Shown: positions 1,009 to 43,179 of the stretch, one piece after another
How the letters are laid out: every line of letters starts with the position of its first letter
How positions within the stretch are numbered: the stretch's first letter is position 1
Origin: a virus
Lineage: Duplodnaviria > Heunggongvirae > Uroviricota > Caudoviricetes
Virus record (IMG/VR): IMGVR_UViG_2561511241_000008
Location: 1 to 43,179 of that record
DNA: 43,179 bases
Reading direction: 5' to 3' (one strand)
Translations under genes and position numbers: made by a program
The notes under the pieces: model-generated
What the model saw: only the letters and a program-made list of their open reading frames with translations
Databases searched by the model: none
Told to the model about the DNA's origin: nothing

Positions 1009-1083
1009 GTCCTCTTAGTTAAATGGATATAACGAGCCCCTCCTAAGGGCTAATTGCAGGTTCGATTCCTGCAGGGGACACCA
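1009..1083 (+). tRNA. argW: tRNA-Arg (anticodon CCU)
   Basis: 75-nt cloverleaf read by eye: acceptor stem GTCCTCT/AGGGGAC, anticodon loop CTCCTAA, T-loop GGTTCGATTCC, 3' CCA. Confidence 0.9.
1054..1069. repeat. 16-bp segment of argW T-arm (TTGCAGGTTCGATTCC), copy 1 of 2
   Basis: exact 16/16 match to 42944-42959. Confidence 0.8.
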
Positions 1084-1244
1084 TTTATCAGTTCGCTCCC
1101 ATCCGTACCAGTCCGCAAAATCCCCTGAATATCAAGCCTTCCGTAGATTCACAGTTCGTAATGGTTCGCGTCAGATCGTTGACAGCCGCACTCCATGACG
1201 GGTAAAAAGTGGATAAAATAATTTTACCCACCGGATTTTTACCC

Positions 1245-2393
1245 ATGCTCACCGTTAAGCAGATTGAAGCAGCAAAGCCGAAAGAAAAACCATACCGCCT
1301 TCTCGATGGTAATGGCCTGTACCTTTATGTCCCTGTATCCGGGAAAAAGGTATGGCAGCTTCGCTACAAGATTGACGGTAAGGAGAAAATCCTTACCGTC
1401 GGAAAATATCCGCTTATGACTTTGCAGGAGGCAAGGGATAAAGCATGGACTGCGAGGAAAGACATCTCGGTTGGCATCGATCCGGTAAAAGCGAAAAAGG
1501 CTTCGTCTAACAACAACTCCTTTAGCGCCATTTACAAGGAATGGTACGAGCACAAGAAGCAAGTCTGGTCAGTAGGGTATGCGACTGAACTTGCAAAAAT
1601 GTTTGATGACGACATTTTACCTATCATCGGCGGCCTTGAAATTCAGGATATTGAGCCGATGCAACTGCTGGAAGTAATCCGCAGATTTGAAGATCGCGGT
1701 GCAATGGAGCGAGCAAATAAAGCCCGCAGAAGATGCGGTGAGGTTTTCCGTTACGCTATTGTCACTGGTAGGGCTAAATATAACCCGGCACCTGACCTTG
1801 CTGACGCCATGAAGGGATACCGCAAGAAGAACTTCCCGTTTCTTCCTGCAGACCAGATCCCGGCATTCAACAAAGCACTGGCTACATTTTCAGGAAGTAT
1901 CGTATCGCTCATTGCGACCAAAGTTTTACGCTACACAGCCCTCAGAACAAAAGAGCTTCGTTCCATGCAATGGAAGAACGTCGATTTTGAAAACAGGATT
2001 ATCACCATAGACGCCAATGTGATGAAGGGACGCAAGATTCATGTGGTTCCGATGTCGGACCAGGTAGTTGAACTTCTCACTACGCTAAGCTCCATCACTA
2101 AACCAGTATCAGAGTTTGTTTTTGCCGGACGCAACGATAAGAAGAAGCCAATCTGCGAGAACGCGGTATTGCTTGTGATCAAACAAATCGGCTATGAGGG
2201 TCTGGAAAGCGGTCACGGATTCAGGCATGAATTCAGCACGATTATGAACGAGCACGAATGGCCCGCTGATGCCATTGAGAAGCAACTGGCGCACGCTAAC
2301 AGCGGCTCCATTCGTGGGATATACAATCACGCTCAGTACATGGATAAGCGCCGGGAGATGATGCAGTGGTGGGCTGATTGGATTGATGAGTAG
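1245..2393 (+). CDS. intS: Tyrosine integrase, P4/KplE1 IntS-like
   Basis: ORF 1209-2393; N-terminus MLTVKQIEAAKPKEKPYRLLDGNGLYLYV typical of tRNA-associated P4-family integrases; ATG at 1245 preferred over GTG at 1209. Confidence 0.9.
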   Translation: MLTVKQIEAAKPKEKPYRLLDGNGLYLYVPVSGKKVWQLRYKIDGKEKILTVGKYPLMTLQEARDKAWTARKDISVGIDPVKAKKASSNNNSFSAIYKEWYEHKKQVWSVGYATELAKMFDDDILPIIGGLEIQDIEPMQLLEVIRRFEDRGAMERANKARRRCGEVFRYAIVTGRAKYNPAPDLADAMKGYRKKNFPFLPADQIPAFNKALATFSGSIVSLIATKVLRYTALRTKELRSMQWKNVDFENRIITIDANVMKGRKIHVVPMSDQVVELLTTLSSITKPVSEFVFAGRNDKKKPICENAVLLVIKQIGYEGLESGHGFRHEFSTIMNEHEWPADAIEKQLAHANSGSIRGIYNHAQYMDKRREMMQWWADWIDE

Positions 2394-2397
2394 ATTC

Positions 2398-4101
2398 TTA
2401 TACAACTTTCCATTGCGCATCGCCGATCAGCCACGCATCAAACAAGCTCATATATCGAGCTCGCAAACGACAGACCTTGTAATCTTCCCCTACACCATCC
2501 AATGAGATCGGTTTACCCAAAAATGTAAGAGAGGTTAAATTTCTTCCCCGTAATATCAACTCGATTTCCTGCCCGTCATAAGCCTGCCCCTGAGTGGTAA
2601 TGTTTGCCCCGTTGGTTACTGGGATGTAAAACGAACTATGGCCGCTTCTTACCGGAACTGGTGCTGGTAATGTAATTGTGCGAATGTCATTTTCCAGACC
2701 ACTCACTACAGCACCACTCACATCACCGATTAGGGCGGTTAGGCGGTCGCGCTTATGCTCAATTGTTAAGCCTGAGTTGCTGCTGTCTGCATCATAAAAG
2801 CCAGTTGAACGATCTCCGCGTAGGTTTACGTTCATCACACGGCAGCCTGATGTGTTTTTTGCTCTGATGCAAACAGTGCCGCTTGTAGATGAGTGATGAG
2901 AACTGCTTACTAAAGCTCCCCTGGATGATGATAGATTGATATCCGCAATTTTACATGCCTCGTAATATGTATTCCCCATTAGCTCTGTTCCTATGGCCCC
3001 GTGATCCATAGTTCCATATCGTTCACAGTTCTGTATAAAACCACCATCTAAAACTACCGCCGTAGTGTTAAACGTTGTCGAATTATCGACATCAATTCCA
3101 TTCAACCCGTTTCTTATCACTAGGCCATAGTCAGGGAGGACGCCGCCTGGGTCACTACTGTATAAATTGGGATTGAGGATCTTGCAGGCATTAGCGCCAT
3201 TCTGATAGATAAGCCTCGTAGAGGCTGTCCCACCATTCATTATTTCTGGATTGTCATTTTTAAGCCCGTAGCAAAGCAAGCCAACTCTCATGCCAACGCA
3301 GTCCCGGCCTAACTGCATATCTACCCACAATCCAAAAATGCCCGAGTTATTACGGCATTTGATTAAATCAATTCCGACAACTCCAGCCTTTCCGTTAAAA
3401 TCAATTCGAGGGTTATGCACCTGTATATTTCTAATATAATCAGTGCCAGCAACAGCTGGATCAGCTTTAAATAGCGTAATATTGTCTCTATTTGCATAAA
3501 AAATAGCGTCTCTTGACTGATGGATCGTTGTATTCCCGTAATAGTAATATGTTGCATCTACCGGATAAATTCCTGGCATGAAATAAATATCTCCACCAGA
3601 GCTCAGTAGCGACTGAATATCCGAGTGAGAATAACTTGGCTCAATGATAACGGCAGATCGGGTTAGTTTTTTTGGAGCGTAGTCATCATAGATGCTTTGC
3701 CCACCCCATGAACTCCCTACTAATTTGTCCCCTCCAGAAGATGCCAATCTCTTCTCAAACTGATCAGGATCATACTTCAGCACATTCGGAAAATAGAACT
3801 GCTGCACACCGTACGCATCATAAACAGCCATAGAATGGCCCTGTACAGTAACGAATTTGGCAATCTGCCCGTTATATACAGGATATCCAGCCGCATTGAT
3901 AACTATTGGCTGTGAGACGGCAATATGAGAACCGTCTTCGCTCCTTACATAAACCGGAATCTGGTTTTCTGAATTTACCGGATCAGTATCAATCTTTCCG
4001 ATATAAATTTTGCCATTAGCTACAGCTTTAAAAGAACGCGCCATAGTGAAGAGTTGCGAAGGCATACTCACTACAACATTGGCATTTATTGAATCTGTCA
4101 T
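2398..4101 (-). CDS. Tailspike protein (P22 gp9-like N-terminal head-binding domain, divergent receptor-binding body)
   Basis: N-terminus MTDxxANVVVSxP...[21 protein letters not shown]...VTVQGHSMA matches P22 tailspike head-binding domain; ATG at 4099-4101 preferred over 4137. Confidence 0.85.
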
Positions 4102-4158
4102 TTGATTTGCTCCAGATACAAGGAATGGCCGCAGCATGGCTACGGTGAATTTTGGGCA

Positions 4159-4183
4159 TAAAAAAACCCAGCCGAAGCTGGGT
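4159..4183 (-). terminator. Intrinsic terminator between ant and tailspike
   Basis: hairpin CCCAGC-CGAA-GCTGGG followed on minus strand by U-run (plus-strand A7). Confidence 0.6.
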
Positions 4184-4201
4184 CGTTGCGTTGGTTATCT
4201 G

Positions 4202-5104
4202 TCAGTAGTTATGTACTGAAGGAGGTAATTCTTTATTCTTAAGTCTTATCCATGCGGAAAGATTCGTTGGTCCGTCTGGCTCATTGATATCAACATCTCG
4301 TGTGTGATTAATTAAAACATCTCTCGCCATTCCGATAACATACGAGAATTCATGACCGTAGTCGTAGCATCTGCCGGAATAGTTCGATTGAATTTGTTTT
4401 AGCGCCGGATACAGTTCGCGGAATAATGCCTGTGAGCGGTTGGCATAATCCCATAACCATACAAGGCTGTTTGCTTCTTTTGCAGAAAGCTCGTTGGTTT
4501 TCTTCTCTTGTTTGCCGATGAATTCGCCTTCAAGCACTACCCTGTGGATGTACTCTACGGCTTGCGGTATCTGAGATGCATCAAGCTCTTCAATACTTTC
4601 CACATTGAAACGCTGATGAATCATTGCATAAGCTTCTGGGTACATTAGATGCTTTTTGCTGACCAGCATATTTACAGCATCACGAAGCGGAGTCCTGTCA
4701 TCAACAGATGTTTTCTTACGTGCATTTTCTGCCTCTCCCTTTGTCCAGTAGTCATGCAGCACAGTAAAGCATTCTTCCTGGTACTGAATCAGTTTATCGC
4801 GGATGTCAGCACGAACTTTCTCAGGGTTGATGCTGAACAGCCATCCATTTAACTTCTTCAAAGGAAGGCAGAGTAGCTTACGAAGCTTACCATCAGCGGC
4901 AACCATATTCATATGAATACAGTTGAACTTATCTAGTTGTTTCATAAGTTTCTGTTGCTGAGTACCCCAGCTCATTCCGAGGTTTTCAACGATTGGCTTC
5001 ATCGCAACATATGCAACTCCGGCAGCCATGGCGGTTAAAATCTGCTGACCATTGAAAGGCACGTAAGAGGTGTTCACTGCTTCTAAAATTGCTATACTAT
5101 TCAT
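4202..5104 (-). CDS. ant: Antirepressor Ant (P22 immI)
   Basis: [25 protein letters not shown]... matches P22 Ant N-terminus; sits downstream of arc. Confidence 0.85.
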
Positions 5105-5166
5105 GTTGGTTTTTCTCCACGGATTTACCGACAACCGAAGCCCTGACTGTTACCGCAGTTGGGGCT

Positions 5167-5388
5167 TCACTGTTTTTGTAAGTCACTGTAGCTATAAAGC
5201 CACTGACCACTCATTTTTGATTTGATTGACTCTACTGAGTCACGGCAAGGAATGATTCCGCCTGACATCATTCTGATCTCCGTAAATTCACCACTCCTTA
5301 TCGATTCAATGCCATCAATGTTAACTAAAGATTTACCTCTACCAAGTGCATTCTCATAGCCAATCTCATCAACCTCAATAAACCTCAT
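5167..5388 (-). CDS. Hypothetical 73-aa protein between arc and ant
   Basis: ORF start overlaps arc stop (ATGA); no recognised homolog. Confidence 0.4.
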   Translation of the reverse strand: MRFIEVDEIGYENALGRGKSLVNIDGIESIRSGEFTEIRMMSGGIIPCRDSVESIKSKMSGQWLYSYSDLQKQ

Positions 5389-5543
5389 ACCGTTATCCCC
5401 TCTCTCTTCAGGCTGTCCAACACTCGCTTGTAAATCTCAGAGTTAACAGATCGCCCGTTCTCTTCAGCTACCTTGCGCACCAAATCCAATACTTCTTTAG
5501 GCCACCGCAAATTGAACTGAGGCATTTTTCTTGCACCTTGCAT
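5385..5543 (-). CDS. arc: Arc repressor (ribbon-helix-helix)
   Basis: translation MQGARKMPQFNLRWPKEVLDLVRKVAEENGRSVNSEIYKRVLDSLKREGITV closely matches P22 Arc; below ORF-track length cutoff; alternative in-frame start at 5564. Confidence 0.8.
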   Translation of the reverse strand: MQGARKMPQFNLRWPKEVLDLVRKVAEENGRSVNSEIYKRVLDSLKREGITV

Positions 5544-5564
5544 ATTCAACTCCATTTCACTCAT

Positions 5565-5636
5565 TGATAGTACCGTGCTACTATTGAAAGCGTACTACTA
5601 CCGTTCTAGCATGTCAACAAATAAAAGGAGAACGAC
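5565..5636. promoter_or_regulatory. Divergent Pant/Pmnt region with Arc-operator-like palindrome
   Basis: imperfect palindrome ATAGTA-N6-TACTAT at 5567-5584; minus-strand TTGACA (5612-5617) 17 bp from TACGCT; plus-strand TTGAAA (5584-5589) 17 bp from TAGCAT (5607-5612). Confidence 0.5.
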
Positions 5637-5879
5637 GTGGCTAGAAATGATCCACAATTCAACGTAAGAATGCCTGATGAGATAAAACAGCAACTTACGC
5701 ATATTGCTGCAACAAATCGCCGCTCGATAAACGCAGAGATTATTTCAGCTATCGAACTATGGATAAAAATTCATAAAGGGCAGCTAATACCTTCAAGTAG
5801 TCGAATCCTGACAAAGTCTGAGCAAGAGGCGTTTGATGTAGCTATTGATGTGTTAAAACGTGTAAGAGATGGAGGATAA
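5637..5879 (+). CDS. mnt: Mnt repressor (ribbon-helix-helix)
   Basis: MARNDPQFNVRMP... resembles P22 Mnt N-terminus; GTG start with AGGAG 6 nt upstream. Confidence 0.75.
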   Translation: MARNDPQFNVRMPDEIKQQLTHIAATNRRSINAEIISAIELWIKIHKGQLIPSSSRILTKSEQEAFDVAIDVLKRVRDGG

Positions 5880-5881
5880 CC

Positions 5882-6115
5882 ATGGAGCAACAACAAGGGT
5901 CGCCATTATCATTGATTATTATGGTGATTTTTTTCGTTTTTATCTTTTTTATACCTGCGTTAAAAATATCCAAAAAGGCCGGGTTTGACTGGAAGATGGC
6001 TGTATGTTTAACAATCCCTGGCTTTAACGTGGTGGCGTGGCTCGCGCTTGCGTTCATGGATTGGCCAATTCACAAGTATCTACCAAAAGATGTGAATCGT
6101 AAGGATGCAAAATGA
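5882..6115 (+). CDS. Small membrane protein (two predicted TM helices), mnt operon
   Basis: 77 aa, hydrophobic stretches LIIMVIFFVFIFFIPAL and VVAWLALAFMDW; immediately follows mnt. Confidence 0.5.
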   Translation: MEQQQGSPLSLIIMVIFFVFIFFIPALKISKKAGFDWKMAVCLTIPGFNVVAWLALAFMDWPIHKYLPKDVNRKDAK

Positions 6116-6321
6116 ATAAAAAACAGTTTATTAAGTCAAAAACGTCAAGCAAGGAAGAATTAGAGAAGGAGCTAAACTCCCTGAAATATGCTCTGTGTCT
6201 GGTTTACTCAAGACTGCCAATGGAAGATAAAAACGCCATTTACAATGAAATGATTAGCAGCCTTGATTTTAACGATAGAGACCTAGCATCCCACCTCAAC
6301 AGCTTCCGCGTCCCTGAGTAA
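6112..6321 (+). CDS. Hypothetical 69-aa protein
   Basis: ORF overlapping the stop of the preceding gene (ATGA). Confidence 0.4.
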   Translation: MNKKQFIKSKTSSKEELEKELNSLKYALCLVYSRLPMEDKNAIYNEMISSLDFNDRDLASHLNSFRVPE

Positions 6322-6481
6322 TTCTGTTGCGGATTTGCTTCTTGCGGTGGTTTAAGCTGGAGAGCTTGGCTTCTGCTTCTGATATTTGCGCATCTAGATC
6401 TTTAAGCTCAAGATCTGAAAGTCGCTGGTCAAGCAGGGTTTGGTTCAACTCAATGTTGTTCAGGCGTTCTTCTATGGTCAT
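6296..6481 (-). CDS. Hypothetical small coiled-coil protein
   Basis: MTIEERLNNIELNQTLLDQRL... with AAGGAG 6 nt upstream of ATG at 6481. Confidence 0.4.
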   Translation of the reverse strand: MTIEERLNNIELNQTLLDQRLSDLELKDLDAQISEAEAKLSSLNHRKKQIRNRITQGRGSC

Positions 6482-6622
6482 GATTTCTCCTTGTTGAGGT
6501 TGATGTGAAACGATTGATTGTATACGCACTCTTTTGTTAGCTAGTAGCTTTGCTTAATCGCAAGATAAAGTTTCTGATTAATCCCTAAAAATCAAAAAAT
6601 AAAGTTAAAACAGGTACATGAT

Positions 6623-6826
6623 ATGGAATGGATCATAGGATTTGTTGTTCTTATCTTCATAGCCAGTATGTTTAAACCAAGAAGTTGCGATATCTGTGGT
6701 GCTGGATTTAAGAAAAAGTACTTCACATGGACTATCGATGGAAAGAAACAGCATCTTTGTCCGTACTGCAACAGTAAAATGGAGAGACGCAACAGCGATA
6801 GGCGCTTTAAGGATCGATTTGGTTAA
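6623..6826 (+). CDS. Small membrane-anchored zinc-ribbon protein
   Basis: N-terminal TM helix plus CDIC...CPYC (two CxxC pairs). Confidence 0.5.
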   Translation: MEWIIGFVVLIFIASMFKPRSCDICGAGFKKKYFTWTIDGKKQHLCPYCNSKMERRNSDRRFKDRFG

Positions 6827-6842
6827 CCATTTTATCTCCAAC

Positions 6843-6868
6843 AAAAAACCCACCTGACGGTGGGTTTT
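6843..6868. terminator. Bidirectional intrinsic terminator
   Basis: A6-ACCCACC-TGAC-GGTGGGT-T4 between convergent genes. Confidence 0.65.
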
Positions 6869-6869
6869 A

Positions 6870-7292
6870 TTAGTGCTTGTATAGCTTGAACTCCCTGTCG
6901 AGCCATAAGACATAAAAAGTGGCTCCTATCTTATAACCAACCATAGGTGCCTTAGAGCAAAATCTGAACGCAATGAAATCCACATCTTGAGTAACATGCT
7001 TAGGAATCGGAGCCTTTATCGCGTTTCTGGCAATTTTTTCCGTCCCAAGCCCGTGTTTATCAGATTTTCGTATCTCATCCCATGACATCTGACTTAACCT
7101 GAACAGCCTATCTGCAAATGCTGCCTTTTCATGCTTTTGGCAGCAATCTAGGCAATACCCCTTTTGTAGGTATCTAAGAGAAAATACAGGCGGACTTTTG
7201 TCTACATCATGAGATTCGTGATGGATAGAGAGGCCAACAGTAGCAGAGCTCTCTTTATCCCTCTGTTTTATTCTTCCCTTAACTCTAGACAT
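6870..7292 (-). CDS. Candidate toxin partner of the Panacea-domain gene
   Basis: 140 aa, starts 5 nt after upstream gene stop; C-terminal ...YVLWLDREFKLYKH; no confident family assignment. Confidence 0.5.
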   Translation of the reverse strand: MSRVKGRIKQRDKESSATVGLSIHHESHDVDKSPPVFSLRYLQKGYCLDCCQKHEKAAFADRLFRLSQMSWDEIRKSDKHGLGTEKIARNAIKAPIPKHVTQDVDFIAFRFCSKAPMVGYKIGATFYVLWLDREFKLYKH

Positions 7293-7297
7293 ACACG

Positions 7298-7741
7298 TCA
7301 GTTAATTAACGTTTTGAAAAAACCTTTCATAGAATCAAGTGTGATTTCTTGGCTAACCGCACCCTCAATGTAAGCATCTTTCCATGGCTGCTCTTCGTGA
7401 GTCATATTGCGCAGTTTCCAGGCAGAAAACTGACCATAAACTTTATACACCTCATCCAGCAATTCAATTTCATCTTCACTGAATTTTTTAGCGTCAAAGT
7501 TTTCTGGCGCAGGTAAAGCTCCGTTACCACAGTCCCTATATTTACGATACAATTCAGGAACTACTGGCCCATGCATCCAGGCTTCAATTTTCTCATTAAA
7601 TAGCGGCTTACCCAGAAGAACCAGAGAAAACCCTTGGGCATAATACGTCAACTTCTGAATTTTTAGGTTAGAGATAATGTCGCCACTTTCTTCATCGCAA
7701 TGCGCCAAGAAGTAGTCGGCGACATCAAAACAAGTGAGCAT
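7298..7741 (-). CDS. DUF4065/Panacea-domain protein (SocA/GepA-like antitoxin-type)
   Basis: motifs KIQKLTYYAQGFSL and WMHGPVVPELY characteristic of DUF4065; GGAGG 7 nt before ATG at 7741. Confidence 0.7.
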   Translation of the reverse strand: MLTCFDVADYFLAHCDEESGDIISNLKIQKLTYYAQGFSLVLLGKPLFNEKIEAWMHGPVVPELYRKYRDCGNGALPAPENFDAKKFSEDEIELLDEVYKVYGQFSAWKLRNMTHEEQPWKDAYIEGAVSQEITLDSMKGFFKTLIN

Positions 7742-8538: not shown

Positions 8539-8562
8539 ACGAATCCATCCGTGGATTACTAA

Positions 8563-34792: not shown

Positions 34793-35509
<717 letters not shown>

Positions 35510-35624: not shown

Positions 35625-36626
35625 ATGAATTCTATTGAAAATCATGATGTTTATGTGTATACAGGCGATATTCATCGTGATGGTTATCTTGATCTCACCA
35701 ATGAAATCAAGAAACGTAAGTCACAACATGGATTAAAAGAGAATGTTATCTTCTGTGTTGCTACTTATGGCGGTGATCCAAATGCAGGTTATCGTATAGG
35801 TAGAGCTCTACAACACCATTATGAAACGGTAACACTTTTAGTTGTTGGACCATGCAAAAGTGCTGGTACACTAATAGCTATAGCAGCCAATAAACTTGTT
35901 ATTGGTGACATGGGGGAGCTTGGGCCATTAGATATCCAACTGAAAAAAAACGATGAAATAGGTGAGATGAGTTCTGGTTTAGCTATCATGACAGCTCTTG
36001 ATGCTCTAAAGGAACGCTCTATTTCAGCGTTTAACTCACACCTTGTTAAGATAAGATACGAAAATCAGATAAGTACTAAAATGTCTGCTGATATCGCGAC
36101 CAGACTTACAGAAGCGTTGATAGCACCTATGGCCGCACAGATAGATCCAATAAAGCTTGGTGAACATCAGCGCGCAATGAGTATAGCTATCACTTATGGC
36201 CAACGATTAGCAGACAAACCAAGCAGCCTAAAAGAAGGGGCGTTAGGCAAACTAATAGCCTCATATCCTTCACATGGATTTGTTATAGACAGAAAAGAAG
36301 CCAAGGAACTTTTCAAGTGTGTTGAGCATCCTAAAGGTATAACAGAAATACTCTATAATCTTTTCTGTGACAAAATTCATAATGGTGACATTCCAACATT
36401 TGGAAAGCCGAGGGTTATTGATTGTACAACGTATCTACAAAAAGAGGAAAAAGCTAATGCCGAAGAATCTGCAACCGGAGATGGAAATTCTCAACAAGAT
36501 GTTGGAAAGCCAGATCCAAGAAGGTCACGATCTGGCAAAAAAAGCGGAACAACACCTGAACGAGATCAAGAAGGAATTGGAGCCGTATCAATTCAACCAC
36601 CAGATGAACAGCAACCTAATGCATGA
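35625..36626 (+). CDS. ClpP/SppA-fold serine peptidase-like protein in rexAB slot
   Basis: motifs TYGGDPNAGYRIGRAL and VVGPCKSAGTLIAIAA resemble ClpP/SppA-family active-site region; AGGGAG 8 nt before ATG; low-complexity C-terminal tail. Confidence 0.55.
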   Translation: MNSIENHDVYVYTGDIHRDGYLDLTNEIKKRKSQHGLKENVIFCVATYGGDPNAGYRIGRALQHHYETVTLLVVGPCKSAGTLIAIAANKLVIGDMGELGPLDIQLKKNDEIGEMSSGLAIMTALDALKERSISAFNSHLVKIRYENQISTKMSADIATRLTEALIAPMAAQIDPIKLGEHQRAMSIAITYGQRLADKPSSLKEGALGKLIASYPSHGFVIDRKEAKELFKCVEHPKGITEILYNLFCDKIHNGDIPTFGKPRVIDCTTYLQKEEKANAEESATGDGNSQQDVGKPDPRRSRSGKKSGTTPERDQEGIGAVSIQPPDEQQPNA

Positions 36627-36642
36627 TCTCTTTGCTCTGTAA
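36457..36642 (+). CDS. Small 61-aa ORF overlapping the 3' tail of the peptidase-like gene
   Basis: AAGAGGA 8 nt upstream of ATG at 36457; different frame from upstream gene. Confidence 0.4.
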   Translation: MPKNLQPEMEILNKMLESQIQEGHDLAKKAEQHLNEIKKELEPYQFNHQMNSNLMHDLFAL

Positions 36643-36654
36643 TTAATTCCTCAC

Positions 36655-36680
36655 AACCCGGCCTCAGCGCCGGGTTTTCT
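36655..36680 (+). terminator. tImm-like intrinsic terminator
   Basis: AACCCGGC-CTCAGC-GCCGGGTT-TT; same hairpin as recalled for lambda tImm. Confidence 0.65.
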
Positions 36681-36833
36681 TTGCCTCTCGCTCCCCTTTC
36701 CCAACAACACATAACCATTTGTATTTATTGGAAAACTAATAGATACAACTTGCTAAACAGTGCAATTCTGATCCCTCACCTACCTAACAATTCACCCCTG
36801 CAAAAAATAAATCCATATAAAAAACATACAGAT

Positions 36834-36896
36834 AACCATCTGCGGTGATAAATTATCTCTGGCGGTGTTGACACAAATACCACTAGCGGTGATACT
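36834..36896 (+). promoter_or_regulatory. Left operator OL3-OL2-OL1 with pL
   Basis: 17-mers at 36834-36850, 36854-36870, 36878-36894 (TACCACTAGCGGTGATA); -35 TTGACA 36868-36873, -10 GATACT 36891-36896. Confidence 0.85.
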
Positions 36897-36942
36897 AAAC
36901 ACATCAGCAGGAAGCTGGAAGCCAAACGGAACAGATTGGCAG

Positions 36943-36976
36943 GCTCTTTAACTTCGATGGGGCGCTGACAAAGCGC
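36943..36976 (+). promoter_or_regulatory. nutL (boxA GCTCTTTAA, boxB GCGCTGACAAAGCGC, P22-type)
   Basis: boxB hairpin with GACAA loop at 36962-36976, boxA-like 36943-36951, between pL and N. Confidence 0.6.
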
Positions 36977-37095
36977 AAACAGATACCAAACGAGATGGGT
37001 TTGGCGGTGATGTGAATTGCAGCAGCAACGACAGCAACCAGAAGATCAGCATCTGGCGCATTACCACCAAAGCCATTTCACATGAGGAAAATATC

Positions 37096-37404
37096 ATGAC
37101 GGTAATCGTGTACGGAAAATCAACATTTGCAGGAAATGCCAAAACTCGCCGTCATGAGCGGCGCAGAAAGCTGGCTATCGAGCGTGATGCTATATGCAAC
37201 ATCATCGATTCGATCTTCGGCACAGACAGTGAGGAACCTGTTCAGGAAGCCCCGAGAAAGCGTTTAAGCATTTCTGAAAAAGCAATATCACTCGGCATCA
37301 TTAGCAAATCAAATACAGATGCGAATAGCGGAAGCGTTTGTTTGCCTGAAGTTGCACTGTATGCTGCTGGTTACAGAAGGCAAAAACTAATTACAGCGAG
37401 GTAA
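37096..37404 (+). CDS. N: N antiterminator (P22 gp24-like, arginine-rich motif)
   Basis: MTVIVYGKSTFAGNAKTRRHERRRKLAIERD... matches P22 gene 24 product as recalled; GAGGA 7 nt upstream; ORF-track start at 37012 (GTG) rejected. Confidence 0.8.
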   Translation: MTVIVYGKSTFAGNAKTRRHERRRKLAIERDAICNIIDSIFGTDSEEPVQEAPRKRLSISEKAISLGIISKSNTDANSGSVCLPEVALYAAGYRRQKLITAR

Positions 37405-37406
37405 AA

Positions 37407-37685
37407 ATGAAGCCTAGCATAACAATCAAGCCAGCGAGAGATAATAGCAGGAACCGCCGCAGAGAGGCCAGGAAGGCAGAAAGAGCAGAGAAGGAAAACA
37501 AGAGCCGGGAGGAGAGAAAGGCAGAGATTTTGGAAAAAGGAGGATTGGCTGCCGTGAGGGGTGAAAAAGCAGCTGAATTAGCAGTAGCTCACGAAAAGAC
37601 AGAGATTGACAATAATTCTGGTGGAGATGCAATGTTTAAAGTTGTCAATCACGCCCATCAACGAAACCCCAAAAAGAAATGGTAA
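37407..37685 (+). CDS. Hypothetical highly charged 92-aa protein
   Basis: Lys/Glu/Arg-rich ORF directly after N. Confidence 0.4.
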   Translation: MKPSITIKPARDNSRNRRREARKAERAEKENKSREERKAEILEKGGLAAVRGEKAAELAVAHEKTEIDNNSGGDAMFKVVNHAHQRNPKKKW

Positions 37686-37688
37686 TCA

Positions 37689-37710
37689 ACCCGTCCAAGA
37701 CGGGTTTTTT
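37689..37710 (+). terminator. Intrinsic terminator (tL1-like)
   Basis: ACCCGTC-CAA-GACGGGT followed by T6. Confidence 0.65.
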
Positions 37711-37742
37711 ATTGCAAGCAAACCACTTATTTGAGGTGAGAT

Positions 37743-38213
37743 ATGACAAAATCATGGAGCGTACCTTTTCCTGAATCAGAAACTGAACATGAGGGAATGC
37801 CTGTTTTCTGGAGATTCCAAGCGACAGTTGAAGAAGATGGAATCAAAATATTCGCACTTCAATATATAGCTTTTCATCAGACAGAGCATTATGCATGGTT
37901 GGTTCCTGCGCATTGGATTGTTAATTTTAAACCAGCACCAAATCAGTGGTTACAGGAATGGAAACAAAGGAGAAATAGATATGCAATTAAGAAAGTAGCA
38001 AAAAATGCAGAAAGATCTTTTGCATTCCCAACGAAGAAACTTGCTATTGAAAGTTTATTGCGCCGGAAGAAATACCATTTAATGAGGATAAAACAAGATT
38101 TGGCTGTTGTATCAACTCTTGTTGATGGGATGAAAAATATTGATACATCAACACCAGATATTGAATATAACTTTGGACACAACCAAGAAACAGAAAATTG
38201 GGTATTCTACTAG
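37743..38213 (+). CDS. Hypothetical 156-aa protein (AT-rich moron)
   Basis: own RBS GAGGTGAG; AT-rich coding sequence. Confidence 0.5.
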   Translation: MTKSWSVPFPESETEHEGMPVFWRFQATVEEDGIKIFALQYIAFHQTEHYAWLVPAHWIVNFKPAPNQWLQEWKQRRNRYAIKKVAKNAERSFAFPTKKLAIESLLRRKKYHLMRIKQDLAVVSTLVDGMKNIDTSTPDIEYNFGHNQETENWVFY

Positions 38214-38259
38214 GCCGCATAGTCGGCCTTTATTTTTGGCACAAACAACAGAGGTGAAT

Positions 38260-38394
38260 ATGAACGCAGTTGAATTTACAAAATGGATGGCAGAGCAAGA
38301 TATCACAGGAGCCGACGAAAAGGCTGTGTACTACATGGCTCTGCTATGGATTCACAAAGCAAAAGAGGCTGCAAATGCTCTTGGAGATAAGTAA
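38260..38394 (+). CDS. Hypothetical 44-aa protein
   Basis: GAGGTGA before ATG at 38260; inside ORF 38140-38394. Confidence 0.3.
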   Translation: MNAVEFTKWMAEQDITGADEKAVYYMALLWIHKAKEAANALGDK

Positions 38395-38582
38395 TGAAAG
38401 TAAAAATAACTGCTTCTAATACCAGTTTTGTTAGTGCTGGTGATATTACAGAAGTAATAACAAACCATGATGGAACCCAAGTTATGTGGTCTGATTTTTG
38501 TAAAAGATATGAGCGAGTTAGTTGGTGTAAACTCGTATGGGGCGTCGAATACGAAGAATTACCTGAAATGCATGACGAATAA
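38394..38582 (+). CDS. Hypothetical 62-aa protein
   Basis: ORF only. Confidence 0.35.
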   Translation: MKVKITASNTSFVSAGDITEVITNHDGTQVMWSDFCKRYERVSWCKLVWGVEYEELPEMHDE

Positions 38583-38716
38583 GCACTGTGTATTCATTCC
38601 AACGAGTGAATACACGGAGCAATGTCGCTCGTAACCAAACAGGAGCCGACTTGTTCTGATTATTGGAAATCTTCTTTGCCCTCCGGTGTGAGGGCAATTT
38701 TTTTGACGGAGGATAT

Positions 38717-39685
38717 ATGAGTGAAGTAACAGATTTAGTTGTTATTGAAAAAGCAAATGCAATGACTGTATTTCAGTCTGCCGACCAGATTGAAGAAATC
38801 CTTCAAAAGGTTGAACGTGAAGTTATGTCCTTTGTGCCTGATATCACAACGGCAAAGGGCAGAAAGGAGATCGCTTCTCTGGCGTATAAAGTTGCGCAGA
38901 CGAAAACATATCTCGATGGTCTTGGAAAAGACCTTGTTGCTGAACTGAAGGAAATTCCAAAGCTAATTGATGCCAACCGCAAGACAGTGCGCGATCGCCT
39001 TGATGAGCTGAAAGCCAAGGCACGCCAGCCTCTTACTGATTATGAAGAGGAACAGGCGCGAATTAAAGCTGAAGAAGAAGCTAAGGCAGCAGCTGAAGCT
39101 CTCGCAAAGCAAATTGAGTCTGACCATGAAATAGCGATTTTGATGGATCGCGAATTTGACCGCCAAAGAGAAGAGGCAAGACTCAAAGCGGAGCAGGAAA
39201 AGCGAGAGCATGAAGAACGCTTAAAAAGAGAAGCTGAAGAGAAAGCCAGAGCTGAAGCCGAAGCAAAGGCAAAAGCCGAAATTGAAGCAGCAGCAAGGCG
39301 AGAAGCAGAAGCTAAGGCCGCAGCGGAACGTGCAGAGCGTGAACGCATTGAAGCCGAGCAACGAGCACAGCGCGAAACAAAAGAGGCAGCAGAACGAGCT
39401 GAAAGAGAAAAGCAGGCGGCAATTGAAGCAGAACGCCGAAAAGCACAGGAGGAGGCTGAACGAATCCGGCGCGAGGCTGAAGCAAAAGAGCAAGCCAGAA
39501 TAGCAGAAGAAAAAAGAATCAAGGAAGAAGAAGAGCGTAGAGCAAAGGATAAAGCTCACCGGAAAGAAGTAAATAACAAAATACTTGCTGACCTTATCAA
39601 GGTTGGCGCATCAGAAGATGTTGCTAAAAATATCATAACAGCCATCGTAAAAGGCGAAGTATTCGCAACAAAAATAACCTACTAA
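38717..39685 (+). CDS. Coiled-coil protein with Ala/Glu/Lys/Arg-rich repeat core
   Basis: ORF 38663-39685, ATG at 38717 after GGAGGA; central EAKAKAE-type repeats. Confidence 0.5.
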   Translation: MSEVTDLVVIEKANAMTVFQSADQIEEILQKVEREVMSFVPDITTAKGRKEIASLAYKVAQTKTYLDGLGKDLVAELKEIPKLIDANRKTVRDRLDELKAKARQPLTDYEEEQARIKAEEEAKAAAEALAKQIESDHEIAILMDREFDRQREEARLKAEQEKREHEERLKREAEEKARAEAEAKAKAEIEAAARREAEAKAAAERAERERIEAEQRAQRETKEAAERAEREKQAAIEAERRKAQEEAERIRREAEAKEQARIAEEKRIKEEEERRAKDKAHRKEVNNKILADLIKVGASEDVAKNIITAIVKGEVFATKITY

Positions 39686-39709
39686 TAAAACCAACATAAG
39701 GAACCACCC

Positions 39710-39841
39710 ATGATTTACGCAATCGCGGGAGGCGCTCGCATGGGTGCCTTCCAATTAAATGAATCTTTACTTGAACGAATCACCCGTAAATTACGTGACG
39801 GATGGAAAAGAGTTGAGGTCTTGTTATGCGCAATGAAATAG
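39710..39841 (+). CDS. cIII: CIII-like protein
   Basis: hand translation ...ESLLERITRKLRDGWKR... matches lambda CIII core; below ORF-track cutoff. Confidence 0.6.
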   Translation: MIYAIAGGARMGAFQLNESLLERITRKLRDGWKRVEVLLCAMK

Positions 39842-39978
39842 CCATTAATCACCAGATGCTTCGCGCTGCACAAAATAAAGCAGTAATAGCCAGATTTATT
39901 GGTGATTCCAAAATGTGGCTTGAAGCAAATAAAGAGATGAAATCAGCTATCAACCATCCGTGGTATCGCAGGAAATGA
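39826..39978 (+). CDS. kil: Kil-like protein
   Basis: hand translation MRNEIAINHQMLRAAQNKAVIARFIGDSKMWLEANKEMKSAINHPWYRRK; IARFIGDSKMW resembles lambda Kil as recalled. Confidence 0.55.
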   Translation: MRNEIAINHQMLRAAQNKAVIARFIGDSKMWLEANKEMKSAINHPWYRRK

Positions 39979-40145
39979 GTTTTACAGACAACTGGTCAGA
40001 CGAAGAATTCATTCGTCAGATGAAAGAATTAATCGGTAACGAAGGAGATATTCATGTCACTTGCAACCACAGTGAAGGAGAGCAAGTTACAGAGACGCAT
40101 GTACACGCAGCAGGCGTTAATGTATCGCCAGAAGGGAGATCGTGA
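39975..40145 (+). CDS. Hypothetical small protein coupled to kil (ATGA overlap)
   Basis: ORF 39960-40145, ATG at 39975. Confidence 0.3.
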   Translation: MSFTDNWSDEEFIRQMKELIGNEGDIHVTCNHSEGEQVTETHVHAAGVNVSPEGRS

Positions 40146-40234
40146 AGGTGTTCGCGTATTTTTAAATGCGGCAAAGACTGAAGTATTAAATCAGCGTTAT
40201 TTCCTTGGGCCGTGTCCATTCTGAGAACAATCAT

Positions 40235-40840
40235 ATGAGCAAAGAATTTTACGCAAGACTGGCAGCTATTCAGGAGAATCTGAACGCGCCAAAGAATCAG
40301 TACAACTCATTCGGTAAATATAAATACAGAAGCTGCGAAGACATTCTTGAAGGCGTTAAGCCGTTACTGAATGGCCTGTTTTTATCAATCAGCGATGAAG
40401 TTGTGTTGATTGGTGATCGGTATTACGTGAAAGCCACGGCAACTATTACCGATGGTGAAAACAGTCATACGGCAACCGCTCTTGCACGAGAGGAAGAAAG
40501 CAAGAAAGGAATGGATTCTGCACAAGTTACGGGAGCTACAAGCTCTTATGCACGCAAGTATTGCCTCAATGGTTTGTTCGGCATTGATGATGCGAAAGAT
40601 GCAGATACCGACGAGCATAAACATCAGCAGAACGCAGCAGCAAAGCAATCAAAGCCATCACATACACCTGAACAGGTTCTAAAAGCATTCACTGACGCAG
40701 CATTGCAGAAAAACACCGTAGAAGAGCTTAAACAGGCGTTCGCCAAAGCGTGGAAGATGCTCGAAGGCACACCGGAGCAGCACAAAGCGCAGGACGTTTA
40801 CAACATCAGACGAGACGAATTAGAAGGAGCGGCTGCTTAA
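40235..40840 (+). CDS. erf: Erf single-strand annealing protein (P22 Erf-like)
   Basis: MSKEFYARLAAIQENLNAPKNQYNSFGKYKYRSCEDILEGVKPLL... matches P22 Erf as recalled. Confidence 0.85.
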   Translation: MSKEFYARLAAIQENLNAPKNQYNSFGKYKYRSCEDILEGVKPLLNGLFLSISDEVVLIGDRYYVKATATITDGENSHTATALAREEESKKGMDSAQVTGATSSYARKYCLNGLFGIDDAKDADTDEHKHQQNAAAKQSKPSHTPEQVLKAFTDAALQKNTVEELKQAFAKAWKMLEGTPEQHKAQDVYNIRRDELEGAAA

Positions 40841-41223
40841 TGGCACATTCGATTACTGTAAGACTAAACAAACCCGCAAGAGAGTTTCAGGCCGGGGAAA
40901 ATATCGGATTCAACATCCGTGCTGGCGTTCAGTATTACGATCGCCAGACAAAAAAGAAAGAATGGACAAACTACAGCGCCGTTGTATTTGCCAAGCCGGG
41001 AGCGCAAGCGGATTACTACCGTAGTGTTCTTGTTGAAGGTGGCATTGTTGAAATTACCGGAGAAAACATCAGGGTTGATGTTTATCAGGGGCAAAATGGT
41101 CAATCAATCACTCTTGAATTACTGAATGCAAAGATTGGATTTGCAACTTCAGGAAACAGCCAACAGCAGCAAAGTAGCAATCATCAAAATCATCCTGAAT
41201 ACGACGATTCAATTCCCTTCTAA
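40840..41223 (+). CDS. ssb: Single-stranded DNA-binding protein (SSB-like)
   Basis: OB-fold-length protein with Gln/Ser-rich linker and acidic C-terminal tip DDSIPF; TAATG coupling to erf. Confidence 0.7.
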   Translation: MAHSITVRLNKPAREFQAGENIGFNIRAGVQYYDRQTKKKEWTNYSAVVFAKPGAQADYYRSVLVEGGIVEITGENIRVDVYQGQNGQSITLELLNAKIGFATSGNSQQQQSSNHQNHPEYDDSIPF

Positions 41224-41246
41224 AGTAGCAACATAAGGATTCCATT

Positions 41247-41540
41247 ATGCCAGCGCCTCTGTATGGTGCGGACGACGCGCGCCGCTGTTCCGGCAATTCC
41301 GTGTCGGAGGTGCTGGATAAATTCAGAAAAAACTACGATCGGATAATGTCGCTACCGCAGGAAACGAAAGAGGAAAAGGAATTTCGCCATTGTATATGGC
41401 TTGCAGAGAAAGAAGAACGCGAGCGAATTTACCAGACATCAATCCGACCATTCCGCAAAGCCACATATACCCACTTCCCTGAAATTGACCCGCGCCTGCG
41501 TAATTACCGCTCACGCTATGGCGCTATCAGTAATGACTGA
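41247..41540 (+). CDS. Hypothetical 97-aa protein
   Basis: ORF only. Confidence 0.4.
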
Positions 41541-41550
41541 GGAATTTACA

Positions 41551-41715
41551 ATGAGAGGACTTGCATACAATCCCGGCATTCTTCCGGCAGAAATGATTAT
41601 TCGCCAACGCGTAAAGCCAATGCCATCGAGAGAGGAATTGCTTAAGAGAAATTCTTTTCCATCAGTGAATCAAAACAAATATCTGAATGCGATGTTGCGG
41701 AGTGGGAAGAAATGA
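41551..41715 (+). CDS. Hypothetical 54-aa protein
   Basis: GAGG before ATG at 41551. Confidence 0.3.
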
Positions 41716-42404
41716 AACAAATGTCACTAATTGAGATGGATGGATTCCTGAAAGGTAAATGCATCCCACGAGATTTAAAGGTTAACGAAACAAACGCTGA
41801 ATATCTTGTCCGTAAGTTCGGTGAACTTGAATCAAAACTCAACGAGCAGCGTGAGTATTACGAGGGCGTTATCTCGGATGGGAGTAAGCGTATTGCTGAA
41901 CTGGAGAAAAGCGAAGAGCAACTCATCAACGAGCGTGACCATGCTGAGTATGCTTTAGCTGATATGTATTTTGCAGCAACCGGGAACAGGCCGGAATGGA
42001 GTAACTGTTTCAGTTTTTCAGATGCAGTAGATGCCGTAGTTGACAGAATTGCTGATTTAGAAGCTAAACAGCCATCGCCAGTAGTACCGGAAGAAAAACC
42101 AATGCCGAACCCTCCTAGCATGTATGCGGTTGATGCGGTTGCAGCTATTGCAGAGGTGAGAGGCTGGAACGCCTGTCGTGCCGCCATGCTTCATGGTGCC
42201 AAACCTGTAAGCCAGACTTACAAGTTGAACAAGCTGTCGGGCAACTCTCCGGAAACTCCGGATGGTTGGGTTATGGTGCCGAAGGAACCAACTCAGGCCA
42301 TGATTAAAGCGTGGCTATCAGAGATTGCTAACTTTCGCGGTCATGCTGCTGGTTACAGGGCTGCTCTTGAGGCAGCACCACAACTGGAGGTTAACCGTGG
42401 CTAA
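41712..42404 (+). CDS. Hypothetical 230-aa protein
   Basis: ATGA overlap with preceding ORF. Confidence 0.5.
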
Positions 42405-42681
42405 CCTACAGCTTGCTGTCAAAGGTGAATACTTCGATGCCATGATTCGCGGAGAGAAAACGGAAGAGTATCGCCTGTGTAATGACTACTGGAATAAGCG
42501 AATTATGTTCAGGGATTATGACCGACTGATTATCACAAAGGGATATCCGAAGCGCGACGATTCCAGCCGCAGAATTGATGTTCCGTATGACGGATATGAA
42601 ATCAAGACAATCACACATCCCCACTTCGGCGATAAACCGGTAAAGGTATACGCGATAAAGGTGAATATCGGCAATGAATAA
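42397..42681 (+). CDS. ASCH-like small protein
   Basis: GTG start after GGAGG; AVKGEYFDAMIRGEKTEEYR resembles ASCH-domain N-terminal motif. Confidence 0.4.
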   Translation: MANLQLAVKGEYFDAMIRGEKTEEYRLCNDYWNKRIMFRDYDRLIITKGYPKRDDSSRRIDVPYDGYEIKTITHPHFGDKPVKVYAIKVNIGNE

Positions 42682-42753
42682 CAATCCTCGCACTCGCGGG
42701 GATTTCTTTTATCTGAACTCGCTACGGCGAGTTTTGTTTTATGGAGATGATAA

Positions 42754-42921
42754 ATGCACTTCCGAGTCACAGGCGAATGGAATGGAGAGCCATTCAACAG
42801 AGTTATCGAAGCAGAGGACATCAATGACTGCTATAACCACTGGATGATATTGGCGCAGATAGCAAATGCAGACATAACCAATATTCGAATTGAAGAACTG
42901 AAAGAACACCAAGCCGCCTGA
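42754..42921 (+). CDS. Hypothetical 55-aa protein
   Basis: GGAG 7 nt before ATG; followed by short hairpin plus T6. Confidence 0.3.
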   Translation: MHFRVTGEWNGEPFNRVIEAEDINDCYNHWMILAQIANADITNIRIEELKEHQAA

Positions 42922-42943
42922 TTGCGGTTTTTTATTACCTGAT

Positions 42944-42959
42944 TTGCAGGTTCGATTCC
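42944..42959. repeat. 16-bp copy of argW T-arm segment (TTGCAGGTTCGATTCC), copy 2 of 2
   Basis: exact match to 1054-1069; flank does not continue into tRNA 3' end. Confidence 0.8.
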
Positions 42960-42978
42960 CTATTCGGAGATAGCACTC

Positions 42979-43179
42979 ATGCAACACGAACTACAGCCTG
43001 ATTCACTGGTTGATTTGAAATTCATCATGGCCGATACTGGCTTTGGTAAAACCTTCATCTACGACCGGATTAAGTCCGGCGACCTGCCAAAAGCCAAAGT
43101 TATCCACGGTCGAGCAAGATGGTTATATCGTGACCATTGTGAATTCAAAAATAAGCTCTTAAGCCGCGCCAATGGGTAA
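42979..43179 (+). CDS. torI: AlpA/TorI-like excisionase (recombination directionality factor) candidate
   Basis: 66 aa, small basic DNA-binding protein of AlpA type; resembles E. coli KplE1 TorI as I recall it; stop at window edge. Confidence 0.55.
   Translation: MQHELQPDSLVDLKFIMADTGFGKTFIYDRIKSGDLPKAKVIHGRARWLYRDHCEFKNKLLSRANG

Follow-up and report, generated by a model that had tools for sequence, protein, structure and literature searches.

A mosaic P22-like prophage in Escherichia coli argW with lambda-type immunity, a P22-type N/nut system and a Nun-like gene

The stretch of DNA analyzed here, hereafter the window, is IMG/VR virus record IMGVR_UViG_2561511241_000008 over its full 43,179 nucleotides (nt). 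It carries what reads as a P22-like prophage next to the E. coli tRNA gene argW. An earlier note on this DNA, made from the sequence without database searches, had called it a mosaic prophage built from modules of several lambdoid phages. We compared 71 candidate genes by tblastn, and the whole window by blastn, with CUS-3, lambda, P22, HK620, Sf6, HK544 and the CPS-53 region of E. coli K-12. The host boundary and the recombination genes lie as follows (identities in amino acids, aa).

1-933: yfdC, 100% aa to K-12; the window opens on its start codon
1009-1083, plus strand: argW, tRNA-Arg(CCU), called by ARAGORN and by Rfam tRNA (63 bits)
1069-1084: attL 16-bp core CTGCAGGGGACACCAT, in the 3′ end of argW
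1236-2393, plus strand: intS, KplE1/CPS-53-type tyrosine integrase of 385 aa, 98% to K-12 IntS
42979-43179, plus strand: torI, recombination directionality factor (RDF), 100% to K-12 TorI, HK620 HkaC and Sf6 gp18

IntS is 97-98% identical to the integrases of CUS-3, HK620 and Sf6 and matches Pfam Arm-DNA-bind_3, Phage_int_M and Phage_integrase, which bears out the earlier placement of a P4/KplE1-family integrase beside argW. The attL core is that of KplE1 and HK620: the KplE1 core has been given as CTGCAGGGGACACCAT (PMC2951348), and the same sequence is annotated as the attP core in the HK620 and Sf6 records. From this core the prophage extends to the end of the window, position 43179 being the final base of the torI stop codon. 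In three sister prophages of pig E. coli (rl0044, ETEC1749 and ETEC4085), a second copy of the core lies 74 nt past torI and is followed by dsdC. With IntS by attL and the TorI RDF at the opposite end of the prophage, the integrase and RDF genes are uncoupled, a layout that matches the published one (PMC2951348). The presence of the KplE1 recombination module in the P22-like phages CUS-3, HK620 and Sf6 has likewise been published (PMC2951348).

A further exact 16-bp repeat, TTGCAGGTTCGATTCC, belongs to the argW T-arm and is found at 1054-1069 and again at 42944-42959, 20 nt before torI. The copy before torI is conserved in K-12, HK620, Sf6 and the sister prophages; together, the repeat and the core at 1069-1084 account for the final 31 nt of argW, divided around torI. 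The CUS-3 GenBank record takes TTGCAGGTTCGATTCC as its att core and therefore ends before torI. We considered this repeat (1054/42944) as the true att core and rejected it because HK620, Sf6, K-12 and the KplE1 papers all place the core at CTGCAGGGGACACCAT, downstream of torI.

At the other side of the window, the regulatory region combines features of two phages.

34453-34487, minus strand: P22-type nutR, with boxA CGCTCTTTAT at 34478-34487 and boxB ACCGCCGACAACGCGGT at 34453-34469
34495-35509: lambda immunity core, with cro at 34495-34695 (minus), OR1-OR3 with PR/PRM at 34722-34785, and cI at 34796-35509 (plus)
36834-36976, plus strand: OL3-OL1 with PL at 36834-36896, then nutL with boxA at 36942-36951 and boxB GCGCTGACAAAGCGC at 36962-36976
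37096-37404, plus strand: N antiterminator of the P22 gp24 type, 102 aa, Pfam N_peptide 131 bits

The immunity genes match lambda closely (Cro 98% and CI 95% aa, with three substitutions in the N-terminal domain of CI), and CI retains the Ala-Gly cleavage site and the GNSM and FKKL motifs that carry the catalytic Ser and Lys. OR2, OR3, OL2 and OL3 are exact copies of the lambda operators, and OR1 and OL1 have one mismatch each. A PR-like promoter was found at the immunity core, and PL reads TTGACA-17-GATACT. At the nucleotide level, lambda matches cro-OR-cI over 34481-35505 at 93% and OL/PL over 36655-36915 at 90%. Judged by CI, Cro and the six 17-bp operators, the immunity specificity is that of lambda on sequence, as the earlier note had it. 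Between cI and OL there is no lambda match over 35512-36654; instead of rexA-rexB, this interval holds a 333-aa protease-like gene.

The antitermination system, in turn, is of the P22 type, again in agreement with the earlier note. N is 67% identical to P22 gp24 overall, and its arginine-rich motif GNAKTRRHERRRKLAIERD is identical over 19 residues. The nutL boxB GCGCTGACAAAGCGC and the nutR boxB ACCGCCGACAACGCGGT, both with a GACAA loop and each preceded by a boxA, are identical to their P22 counterparts.

The virion genes occupy the minus strand between the integrase and the lysis genes.

2398-4098, minus strand: tailspike in the gene 9 position, with a P22-type N-terminal head-binding domain (Pfam Head_binding, E=4e-61) and an unrelated receptor-binding domain
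4202-5879: immI, with ant at 4202-5104 (minus), sar RNA at 5105-5171 (plus), a 73-aa open reading frame (ORF) at 5167-5388 (minus), arc at 5385-5543 (minus) and a mnt-like gene at 5637-5879 (plus)
8563-10719, 10719-12068, 12079-12750 and 12753-13208, minus strand: genes 16, 20, 7 and 14, by tblastn against CUS-3, HK620, Sf6 and P22
13208-14161, 14161-15579 and 15589-16050, minus strand: gene 26 (tail needle with knob), gene 10 and gene 4, then a small ORF
16261-17514 and 17533-18426, minus strand: coat and scaffold, Pfam P22_CoatProtein
18517-18735, minus strand: detached 3′ fragment of the portal gene, its last 71 residues, 99% aa to the CUS-3 portal C-terminus
18736-20046, minus strand: IS3-family insertion sequence (IS) of 1311 bp, placed by its junctions relative to the intact CUS-3 portal gene
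20044-22032, minus strand: 5′ part of the portal gene, 662 of 733 codons, ending on a TGA from the IS end, 99% aa to the CUS-3 portal
22032-23994, minus strand: P22-type terminase genes, TerL at 22032-23528 and TerS at 23506-23994, Pfam GP3_package and Terminase_6N/6C

The order TerS-TerL-portal-scaffold-coat-4-10-26-14-7-20-16 ... tailspike is that of a Lederbergvirus, each place being held by a family-specific protein and the portal gene being interrupted by the IS. The earlier note had listed gene 9, ant/arc/mnt, 16-20-7-14-26-10-4, coat, scaffold, portal and terminase as P22-order structural genes; tblastn and Pfam agree on order and places (with the mnt-like gene on the plus strand) but not on descent throughout. 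The coat, scaffold and portal proteins belong to the CUS-3 type (99% aa), and in the parts that align with P22 they reach only 30-33% identity; with gp4 added, the four proteins are 99-100% identical to CUS-3 and 30-41% to P22. Only the terminase is close to P22 (TerL 91% aa to P22 gp2; 87-88% nt over the region), and BLAST found no CUS-3, HK620 or Sf6 match for the terminase genes. The tail needle has a C-terminal knob, matched in PHROG, that is of the Sf6 type (79% aa to Sf6 gp9) and not of the P22 or CUS-3 type. The tailspike N-terminus is 72-85% identical to those of P22, Sf6, HK620 and CUS-3 by tblastn; a sequence search of solved structures matched only residues ~4-118, the head-binding part, and returned none for the receptor-binding domain. 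The immI region carries ant, the arc/mnt repressors and sar as in P22: Ant is 86% and Arc 81% identical to P22, the Arc-family Mnt-like protein 45% over its N-terminus, Pfam P22_AR_N and P22_AR_C are matched, and the sar antisense RNA scores 88.4 bits in Rfam against a gathering score of 43.

Lysis, late control and replication genes follow, also on the minus strand.

25736-26983, minus strand: lysis genes by tblastn, Rz at 25736-26203, Rz1 at 25777-25983, R at 26200-26676 and S at 26660-26983
26984-31397, minus strand: PR′/qut/tR′ at 26984-27651, Q at 27652-28275, then ninI, ninH, ninG, ninF, ninX, ninE, an N6-adenine methyltransferase and ninB
31471-34388, minus strand: DnaB-type helicase at 31471-32847, O-like initiator at 32844-33791, a 90-aa ORF at 33794-34066 and a cII-like gene at 34089-34388

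Over 3.9 kb (25956-29864), from the 5′ part of Rz through R, S, PR′/qut, Q, ninI, ninH and ninG into ninF, the window is collinear with lambda at 96% nt. Q, PR′/qut and S-R-Rz-Rz1 thus give lambda-type late control and lysis, with Rz and Rz1 matching lambda only in part. The earlier assignment of S/R/Rz/Rz1, Q and nin to lambda stood for S (99% aa), R (99%), Q (100%), ninI (96%), ninH (99%), ninG (97%) and ninB (99%). It did not stand for Rz (61% to lambda, 92% to HK620) and Rz1 (41% and 99%), which are lambda/HK620 hybrids: the lambda nucleotide match begins inside Rz at 25956, and the C-terminal parts are HK620-type. The nin region has no ninC or ninD, and its methyltransferase and ninX match HK544 and Sf6. 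O, the DnaB-type P and cII are not lambda-type: the helicase is 100% identical to CUS-3 and 90% to P22 gp12, O is 99% identical to CUS-3, and the cII-like protein is 40% identical to lambda, with a PHROG match to CII-like.

Homology breaks sharply between these modules. At 2393/2398, where the stop codons of int and the tailspike gene face each other, homology to the integrases of K-12, CUS-3, HK620 and Sf6 ends (2389-2396) and resumes at 3758 in the head-binding domain; ~3758, the end of that domain, is itself a breakpoint within the tailspike gene. CUS-3 homology stops at 22070, near the portal/TerL boundary (22070/22075), and restarts at 24067; P22 covers 22075-24000, so that a further breakpoint lies between TerS and DUF2560 (24000/24067). 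The lambda segment begins at 25956 inside Rz and ends at 29864 inside ninF. In the immunity region, lambda ends at 34481, just after the cro stop codon and before the P22-type nutR, and the other switch lies at the PL transcript start (36902-36915), with lambda running to 36915 and P22-like sequence beginning at 36902. The three boundaries proposed earlier (tailspike/int, TerS/moron and cI/N) coincide with BLAST breakpoints, to which the others are added. In all, 96.4% of the window is matched at ≥90% identity by one of eleven reference sequences, and the two gaps (5170-6289 and 8119-8541) are present in other E. coli genomes.

The closest relatives are the three sister prophages, rl0044 (NZ_CP121356.1), ETEC1749 (NZ_CP122712.1) and ETEC4085 (NZ_CP122634.1), which occupy the same yfdC-argW ... 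torI-dsdC site and match the window over 74-78% of its length with long stretches at 99-100%. They share IntS/TorI, the CUS-3-type capsid genes, the P22-type terminase, the Tad2-like/Gp49/DUF2560 locus, the pair of N and a Nun-like gene, and the early-left genes. Identity to the rl0044 prophage is 99.93% across 29727-43179, a stretch that includes cro, cI, the protease-like gene, OL and N and runs on to torI; ETEC1749 matches 1-4534 at 99.6%, its tailspike also at 99.6% nt, and the virion gene stretch 11370-18741 at 99.85%. Lambda-type cI and cro occur in rl0044 and ETEC1749, and rl0044 has the protease-like gene as well. These two differ from the window in having another Q and a roi/rusA-type nin region rather than the lambda-type Q-ninI-ninH-ninG, whereas ETEC4085 has another immunity region and lambda-type O/P. 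The sister prophages also differ in gene 16, the arc/mnt area and the needle C-terminus, and none has an IS in the portal gene.

Among described phages, CUS-3 (CP000711, from E. coli K1 RS218) shares integration at argW, an IntS-type integrase (98% aa), the same gene order and 54% of the window at a mean of 94% nt. Its coat, scaffold, portal, gp4, gp10, O and helicase are 99-100% identical, but it has its own endosialidase tailspike, neuO, Sf6/HK620-type terminase, cI/cro, N, Q and nin set. HK620 and Sf6 are P22-like podophages with the KplE1-type IntS/TorI (TorI 100% aa), the attP core CTGCAGGGGACACCAT, the ejection and tail accessory genes, S and R, and HK620 shares Rz/Rz1; they differ in the Sf6-type coat (no BLAST match), terminase, immunity, N/nut and replication, and cover ~32%. 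KplE1/CPS-53 of K-12 has the insertion site, core, IntS (98% aa), TorI (100% aa) and the arrangement of int at attL and RDF at attR, but it is a 10-kb remnant without immunity, virion or lysis genes, and beyond the ends it shares only ~105 bp at 72%. Lambda contributes cI, cro, OR, OL, PR, PL, PRM, Q, PR′/qut, S, R and ninB/G/H/I at 92-97% nt, 15% of the window; absent are the lambda virion genes, int/xis, red/gam, rexAB, N/nut, O/P and a cII above 40%. P22 shares the virion gene order, TerL (91% aa), TerS, Ant/Arc/sar, the N motif, both boxB sequences and the gp12-type helicase (90%), but coat, scaffold and portal are distant and the window has no gtrABC, P22 int/xis, c2 immunity, sieA or conserved pac 22-mer. 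P22 integrates elsewhere, at thrW.

Taken together, these comparisons make us highly confident that the window contains a lambdoid P22-like (Lederbergvirus-type) prophage in the 3′ end of E. coli argW, drawn from a population of argW prophages (CUS-3, HK620, Sf6, Kapi1 and the pig E. coli prophages) that appear to exchange modules by recombination at conserved boundary sequences. The whole-window comparison with lambda, P22, HK620, Sf6 and CPS-53 that the earlier note proposed thus upholds its mosaic prophage at argW, with modules at the places it gave and with the corrections above. Judging from the near-identity of its parts to characterized genes, the prophage would operate as follows. IntS and TorI would integrate and excise it at the 16-bp core, from promoters uncoupled as in KplE1, and CI of lambda specificity, acting at the lambda-type OR and OL, would silence it and, being RecA-cleavable, would allow SOS induction. 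After induction, the P22-type N would act at the P22-type boxB hairpins to antiterminate the PL and PR transcripts, the DNA would be replicated by the DnaB-type helicase with the CUS-3-type O, and the lambda-identical Q would activate the late operon from the lambda-type PR′/qut. The P22-type terminase would package DNA by the headful mechanism into a CUS-3-type capsid bearing P22-type tail accessory and ejection proteins, the knobbed needle and the tailspike; S, R and Rz/Rz1 would lyse the cell, and Ant/Arc/Mnt/sar would form the immI antirepressor circuit.

Several observations weigh against this reading or limit it. The attR site lies beyond the window, and the right end is taken from relatives. 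The P22 pac 22-mer is not conserved, its best match, in TerS, having 7 mismatches in 22. Among phage records, coverage of either half of the window peaks at 56% (phiv205-1, 56% and 40%; CUS-3 has 54% overall), among complete E. coli genomes in RefSeq window coverage does not exceed 78%, and the exact combination is not present in the collections searched. One could ask whether reads from several lambdoid prophages of one genome had been joined at shared sequences during assembly. Lambdoid prophages do share long near-identical segments, and there are several per E. coli genome (a median of 3-4 matching places). Nevertheless, such an artefact is very unlikely indeed because each module junction is also found unbroken in one or more complete genomes or phages of independent origin: rl0044 covers 29727-43179 and 20047-27233, ETEC1749 1-4534 and 11370-18741, ETEC4085 25977-28286 and 6290-8118, HK544 27552-29956 and HK620 8542-13208. 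The element also sits at the expected chromosomal site with the expected ends. The earlier note held that one phage collinear with the whole window would make the mosaic unremarkable; no such phage was found, but its absence does not make the mosaic remarkable, because mosaicism of this kind is the norm for lambdoid phages. We also give little credence to the view that a new and separate type of phage is present, with functional significance in the way its modules are combined, for instance in coupling lambda immunity to a P22-type N. In its favor, cro-cI-OL occur together with the same N in no phage record (coverage at most 43%), and the lambda-OL/P22-type-nutL-N junction is found at ≥99% identity over ≥93% of the query in only six of 5426 complete genomes (a seventh covers 97% of the query at 90.7%). 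However, ~40 other genomes have this N and nutL next to different operators; of the 45 genomes in which ≥80% of the query is matched, most have a match that begins exactly where the P22-like part does. Immunity regions of lambda specificity are found beside a wide variety of neighbors, and in lambdoid phages the N/nut system works independently of the CI/operator system. There is nothing special about the combination: the argW prophages of rl0044 and ETEC1749 share the arrangement of lambda immunity with P22-type N, and the KplE1 module in P22-like phages is published (PMC2951348).

The prophage itself, however, may no longer be intact. The IS that splits the portal gene, which the earlier note had missed, has terminal inverted repeats beginning TGAACCGCCCCGG and a 3-bp CGC target duplication on both sides; it matches the NCBIfam IS3 transposase at 304 bits and the Rfam ALIL frameshift pseudoknot at 121 bits, and its ends resemble those of IS629/IS1203. 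A 99.1% identical copy lies inside a nin-region gene of the ETEC4085 prophage. The insertion appears recent. It deprives the portal protein of its last 71 residues and breaks the continuity of the late operon, and virion production is probably impaired, because every relative compared (CUS-3, rl0044, ETEC4085 and ETEC1749) has an intact portal gene of 732-733 aa and because the IS precedes scaffold and coat in the late operon, where 1.3 kb may be polar. It could be argued instead that the prophage is still fully viable, with no more than the tip of the C-terminal helical barrel lost and with late transcription, once modified by Q, running through the IS, so that infectious particles are made. 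Of the 733 residues, 662 remain in the truncated product, which may still assemble because the Pfam P22_portal match is retained at full length; P22 portals without the barrel still assemble and package DNA, and the other virion, lysis, replication and regulatory genes all have full-length counterparts. A literature search found no direct data on the effect of truncating the barrel, and the intact target duplication shows only that the insertion is recent. We find full viability rather doubtful and regard the element as an ordinary, probably IS-damaged P22-like prophage at argW with modules known from other phages. As such it matters little, being another instance of lambdoid and P22-like phages exchanging modules at an attachment site that has been much studied, and the use of the analysis lies in correct annotation; the prophage should nonetheless confer lambda-type immunity.

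One item of the prophage is unusual and may be a modest lead that could open a question. It lies directly after N.

37407-37706, plus strand: Nun-like ORF of 92 aa at 37407-37685, PHROG 5632, with an intrinsic terminator at 37688-37706

The whole ORF is covered by a match to PHROG 5632, "Nun-like transcription termination factor" (E=1.5e-29). Only 2 nt separate the N stop codon from its ATG, the terminator downstream is strong, and no promoter-like site was found between PL and the gene. Relative to HK022 Nun, it is shorter (92 versus 109 aa), 30% identical overall, and has another arginine-rich motif, but the C-terminal segment that binds RNA polymerase is nearly the same (VVNHAHQRNPKKKW here versus VVNHAHQRNPNKKWS in HK022), with N97, H98, H100, Q101, R102, K106, K107 and W108 all kept. 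In HK022, the Nun mutants H98A, K106A/K107A and W108A are defective in vivo (PMC5386594). By sequence, then, the ORF has the RNA-polymerase-arresting C-terminal segment of the Nun family, with H98, K106/K107 and W108. A second difference from HK022, which has no N, is that here the Nun-like ORF coexists with a functional-looking N.

The arginine-rich motif of the ORF, unlike that of HK022 Nun, resembles the N motifs of HK620 (10-11/17 residues) and 933W (9/17). Only eleven relatives of the protein were found in a large protein database, and RDNSRNRRRE.R is constant across homologs of 45-86% identity. In four independent contexts, the Nun-like gene lies 2-8 nt after an N gene and before a terminator; the accompanying N motif and boxB (GGCTGAAAAGCC, GAAAA loop) are not of the type seen here, where the loop is the P22-type GACAA, and the Nun-like motif is unchanged. 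The gene is present in 31 of the 5426 complete E. coli genomes (all 14 full-length copies among the matches listed are annotated as hypothetical protein) and blastn detected it in no deposited phage. Neither "Nun-like" nor "Nun homolog" occurred in the papers that a literature search returned, and the Nun studies found concerned HK022 only.

We tentatively propose that the 92-aa ORF encodes a functional transcription-arrest factor of the Nun type whose RNA specificity is new, and that a set of lambdoid prophages carries it together with N as a conserved N-nun pair; we hold this to be quite possible, though not yet the expected outcome. The evidence suggests a Nun-type exclusion factor that has a different target and coexists with N. 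Such a protein would arrest transcription of a competing class of lambdoid phages, possibly of the HK620 or Stx-phage type, while the resident N system is kept. If the gene is active, Nun-type exclusion would be a family with several RNA specificities that can coexist with N.

In Enterobacter GCA_049238165.1, an HK620-type boxB, GATGGGATTGTCCCGCCGAAATGCGGGA, occurs just after position 4279 of the contig locus compared, directly past the terminator of the Nun-like gene, and the resident N uses a GGCTGAAAAGCC-type boxB. This HK620-type boxB may hint at the RNA target or the origin of the Nun-like protein. No HK620-type boxB was found in the window, even when three mismatches were allowed.

The remaining genes are accessory or belong to the early-left region.

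5882-6115: 77-aa ORF directly after the mnt-like gene
6870-7747, minus strand: Panacea/SocA-like antitoxin at 7298-7747 (Pfam SocA_Panacea, 87 bits) with a 140-aa partner at 6870-7292
8116-8538: orphan 140-aa ORF convergent with gene 16
24074-25748, minus strand: accessory locus between lysis and packaging, with DUF2560 at 24074-24316, a Gp49-family gene at 24420-24800, a Tad2-like-domain protein at 25035-25514 and a 50-aa ORF at 25596-25748, named after the sister prophages
35625-36676, plus strand: Clp-fold (SDH-type) serine-protease-like gene of 333 aa in the rexAB slot, including a terminator at 36655-36676
37743-42921, plus strand: early-left genes, with a 933W p19-like gene at 37743-38213, a 62-aa ORF, an Sf6 gp33-like gene at 38717-39685, cIII at 39710-39841, kil at 39826-39978, erf at 40235-40840, an HK97 gp40-like gene, abc2 at 41247-41540, DUF2737, an Ea22-like gene at 41712-42404, ASCH at 42397-42681 and a 55-aa ORF at 42754-42921

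The accessory genes, namely the predicted Clp-fold protease in the rexAB slot, the putative Panacea antitoxin pair and the Tad2-like and Nun-like genes, sit in the usual moron slots. The Tad2-like protein, the antitoxin pair and the protease-like gene are candidate defense or counter-defense cargo, the first as a putative sponge. Of the 159 residues of the Tad2-like protein, the C-terminal 85 match Pfam Tad2-like at 78 bits and the solved anti-Thoeris sponge Tad2 of SPO1 (Gp34.65; 8SME/8WJE) at E=3e-26. The antitoxin falls below the cut-off of NCBIfam SocA_antitoxin, and its partner has weak matches to MAG6450 and to PADLOC NsnC (E=1.8e-7); the two likely form a toxin-antitoxin cassette, located in the variable region between immI and gene 16. 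The protease-like gene belongs to PHROG 21683 (unknown function, E=8e-185) and scores 29.6 bits with Pfam SDH_protease, below the cut-off of 31.3; an NCBIfam match is also weak and below cut-off, and PGAP names the gene at the matching position of rl0044 "SDH family Clp fold serine proteinase". A sequence search of solved structures gave nothing usable for this protein. Lying between cI and OL, the gene is presumably co-transcribed with cI in lysogens. PADLOC returned nothing for the protease-like gene, the Panacea antitoxin, the Tad2-like protein, ORF 8116-8538 or the ORFs after N.

ORF 8116-8538 stands where P22 has sieA, and E. coli UMNF18 and ET245 carry it at 99% identity. PHROG, Pfam and NCBIfam gave no match for it, and no membrane helix is predicted. 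The 77-aa ORF at 5882-6115 has two hydrophobic segments and a match to PHROG 32536 (unknown function), and may encode a small membrane protein made in the lysogen.

The early-left genes were assigned by tblastn against CUS-3, HK544, Sf6, P22 and 933W, and they are 99.9-100% identical at the nucleotide level to rl0044 and ETEC4085. The first of them, at 37743-38213 after the Nun-like ORF, is 99% identical in amino acids to the gene after N in the Stx phage 933W. The nutL boxB of 933W is identical to that of the prophage, and the arginine-rich motif of 933W N differs from the P22-type motif found here.

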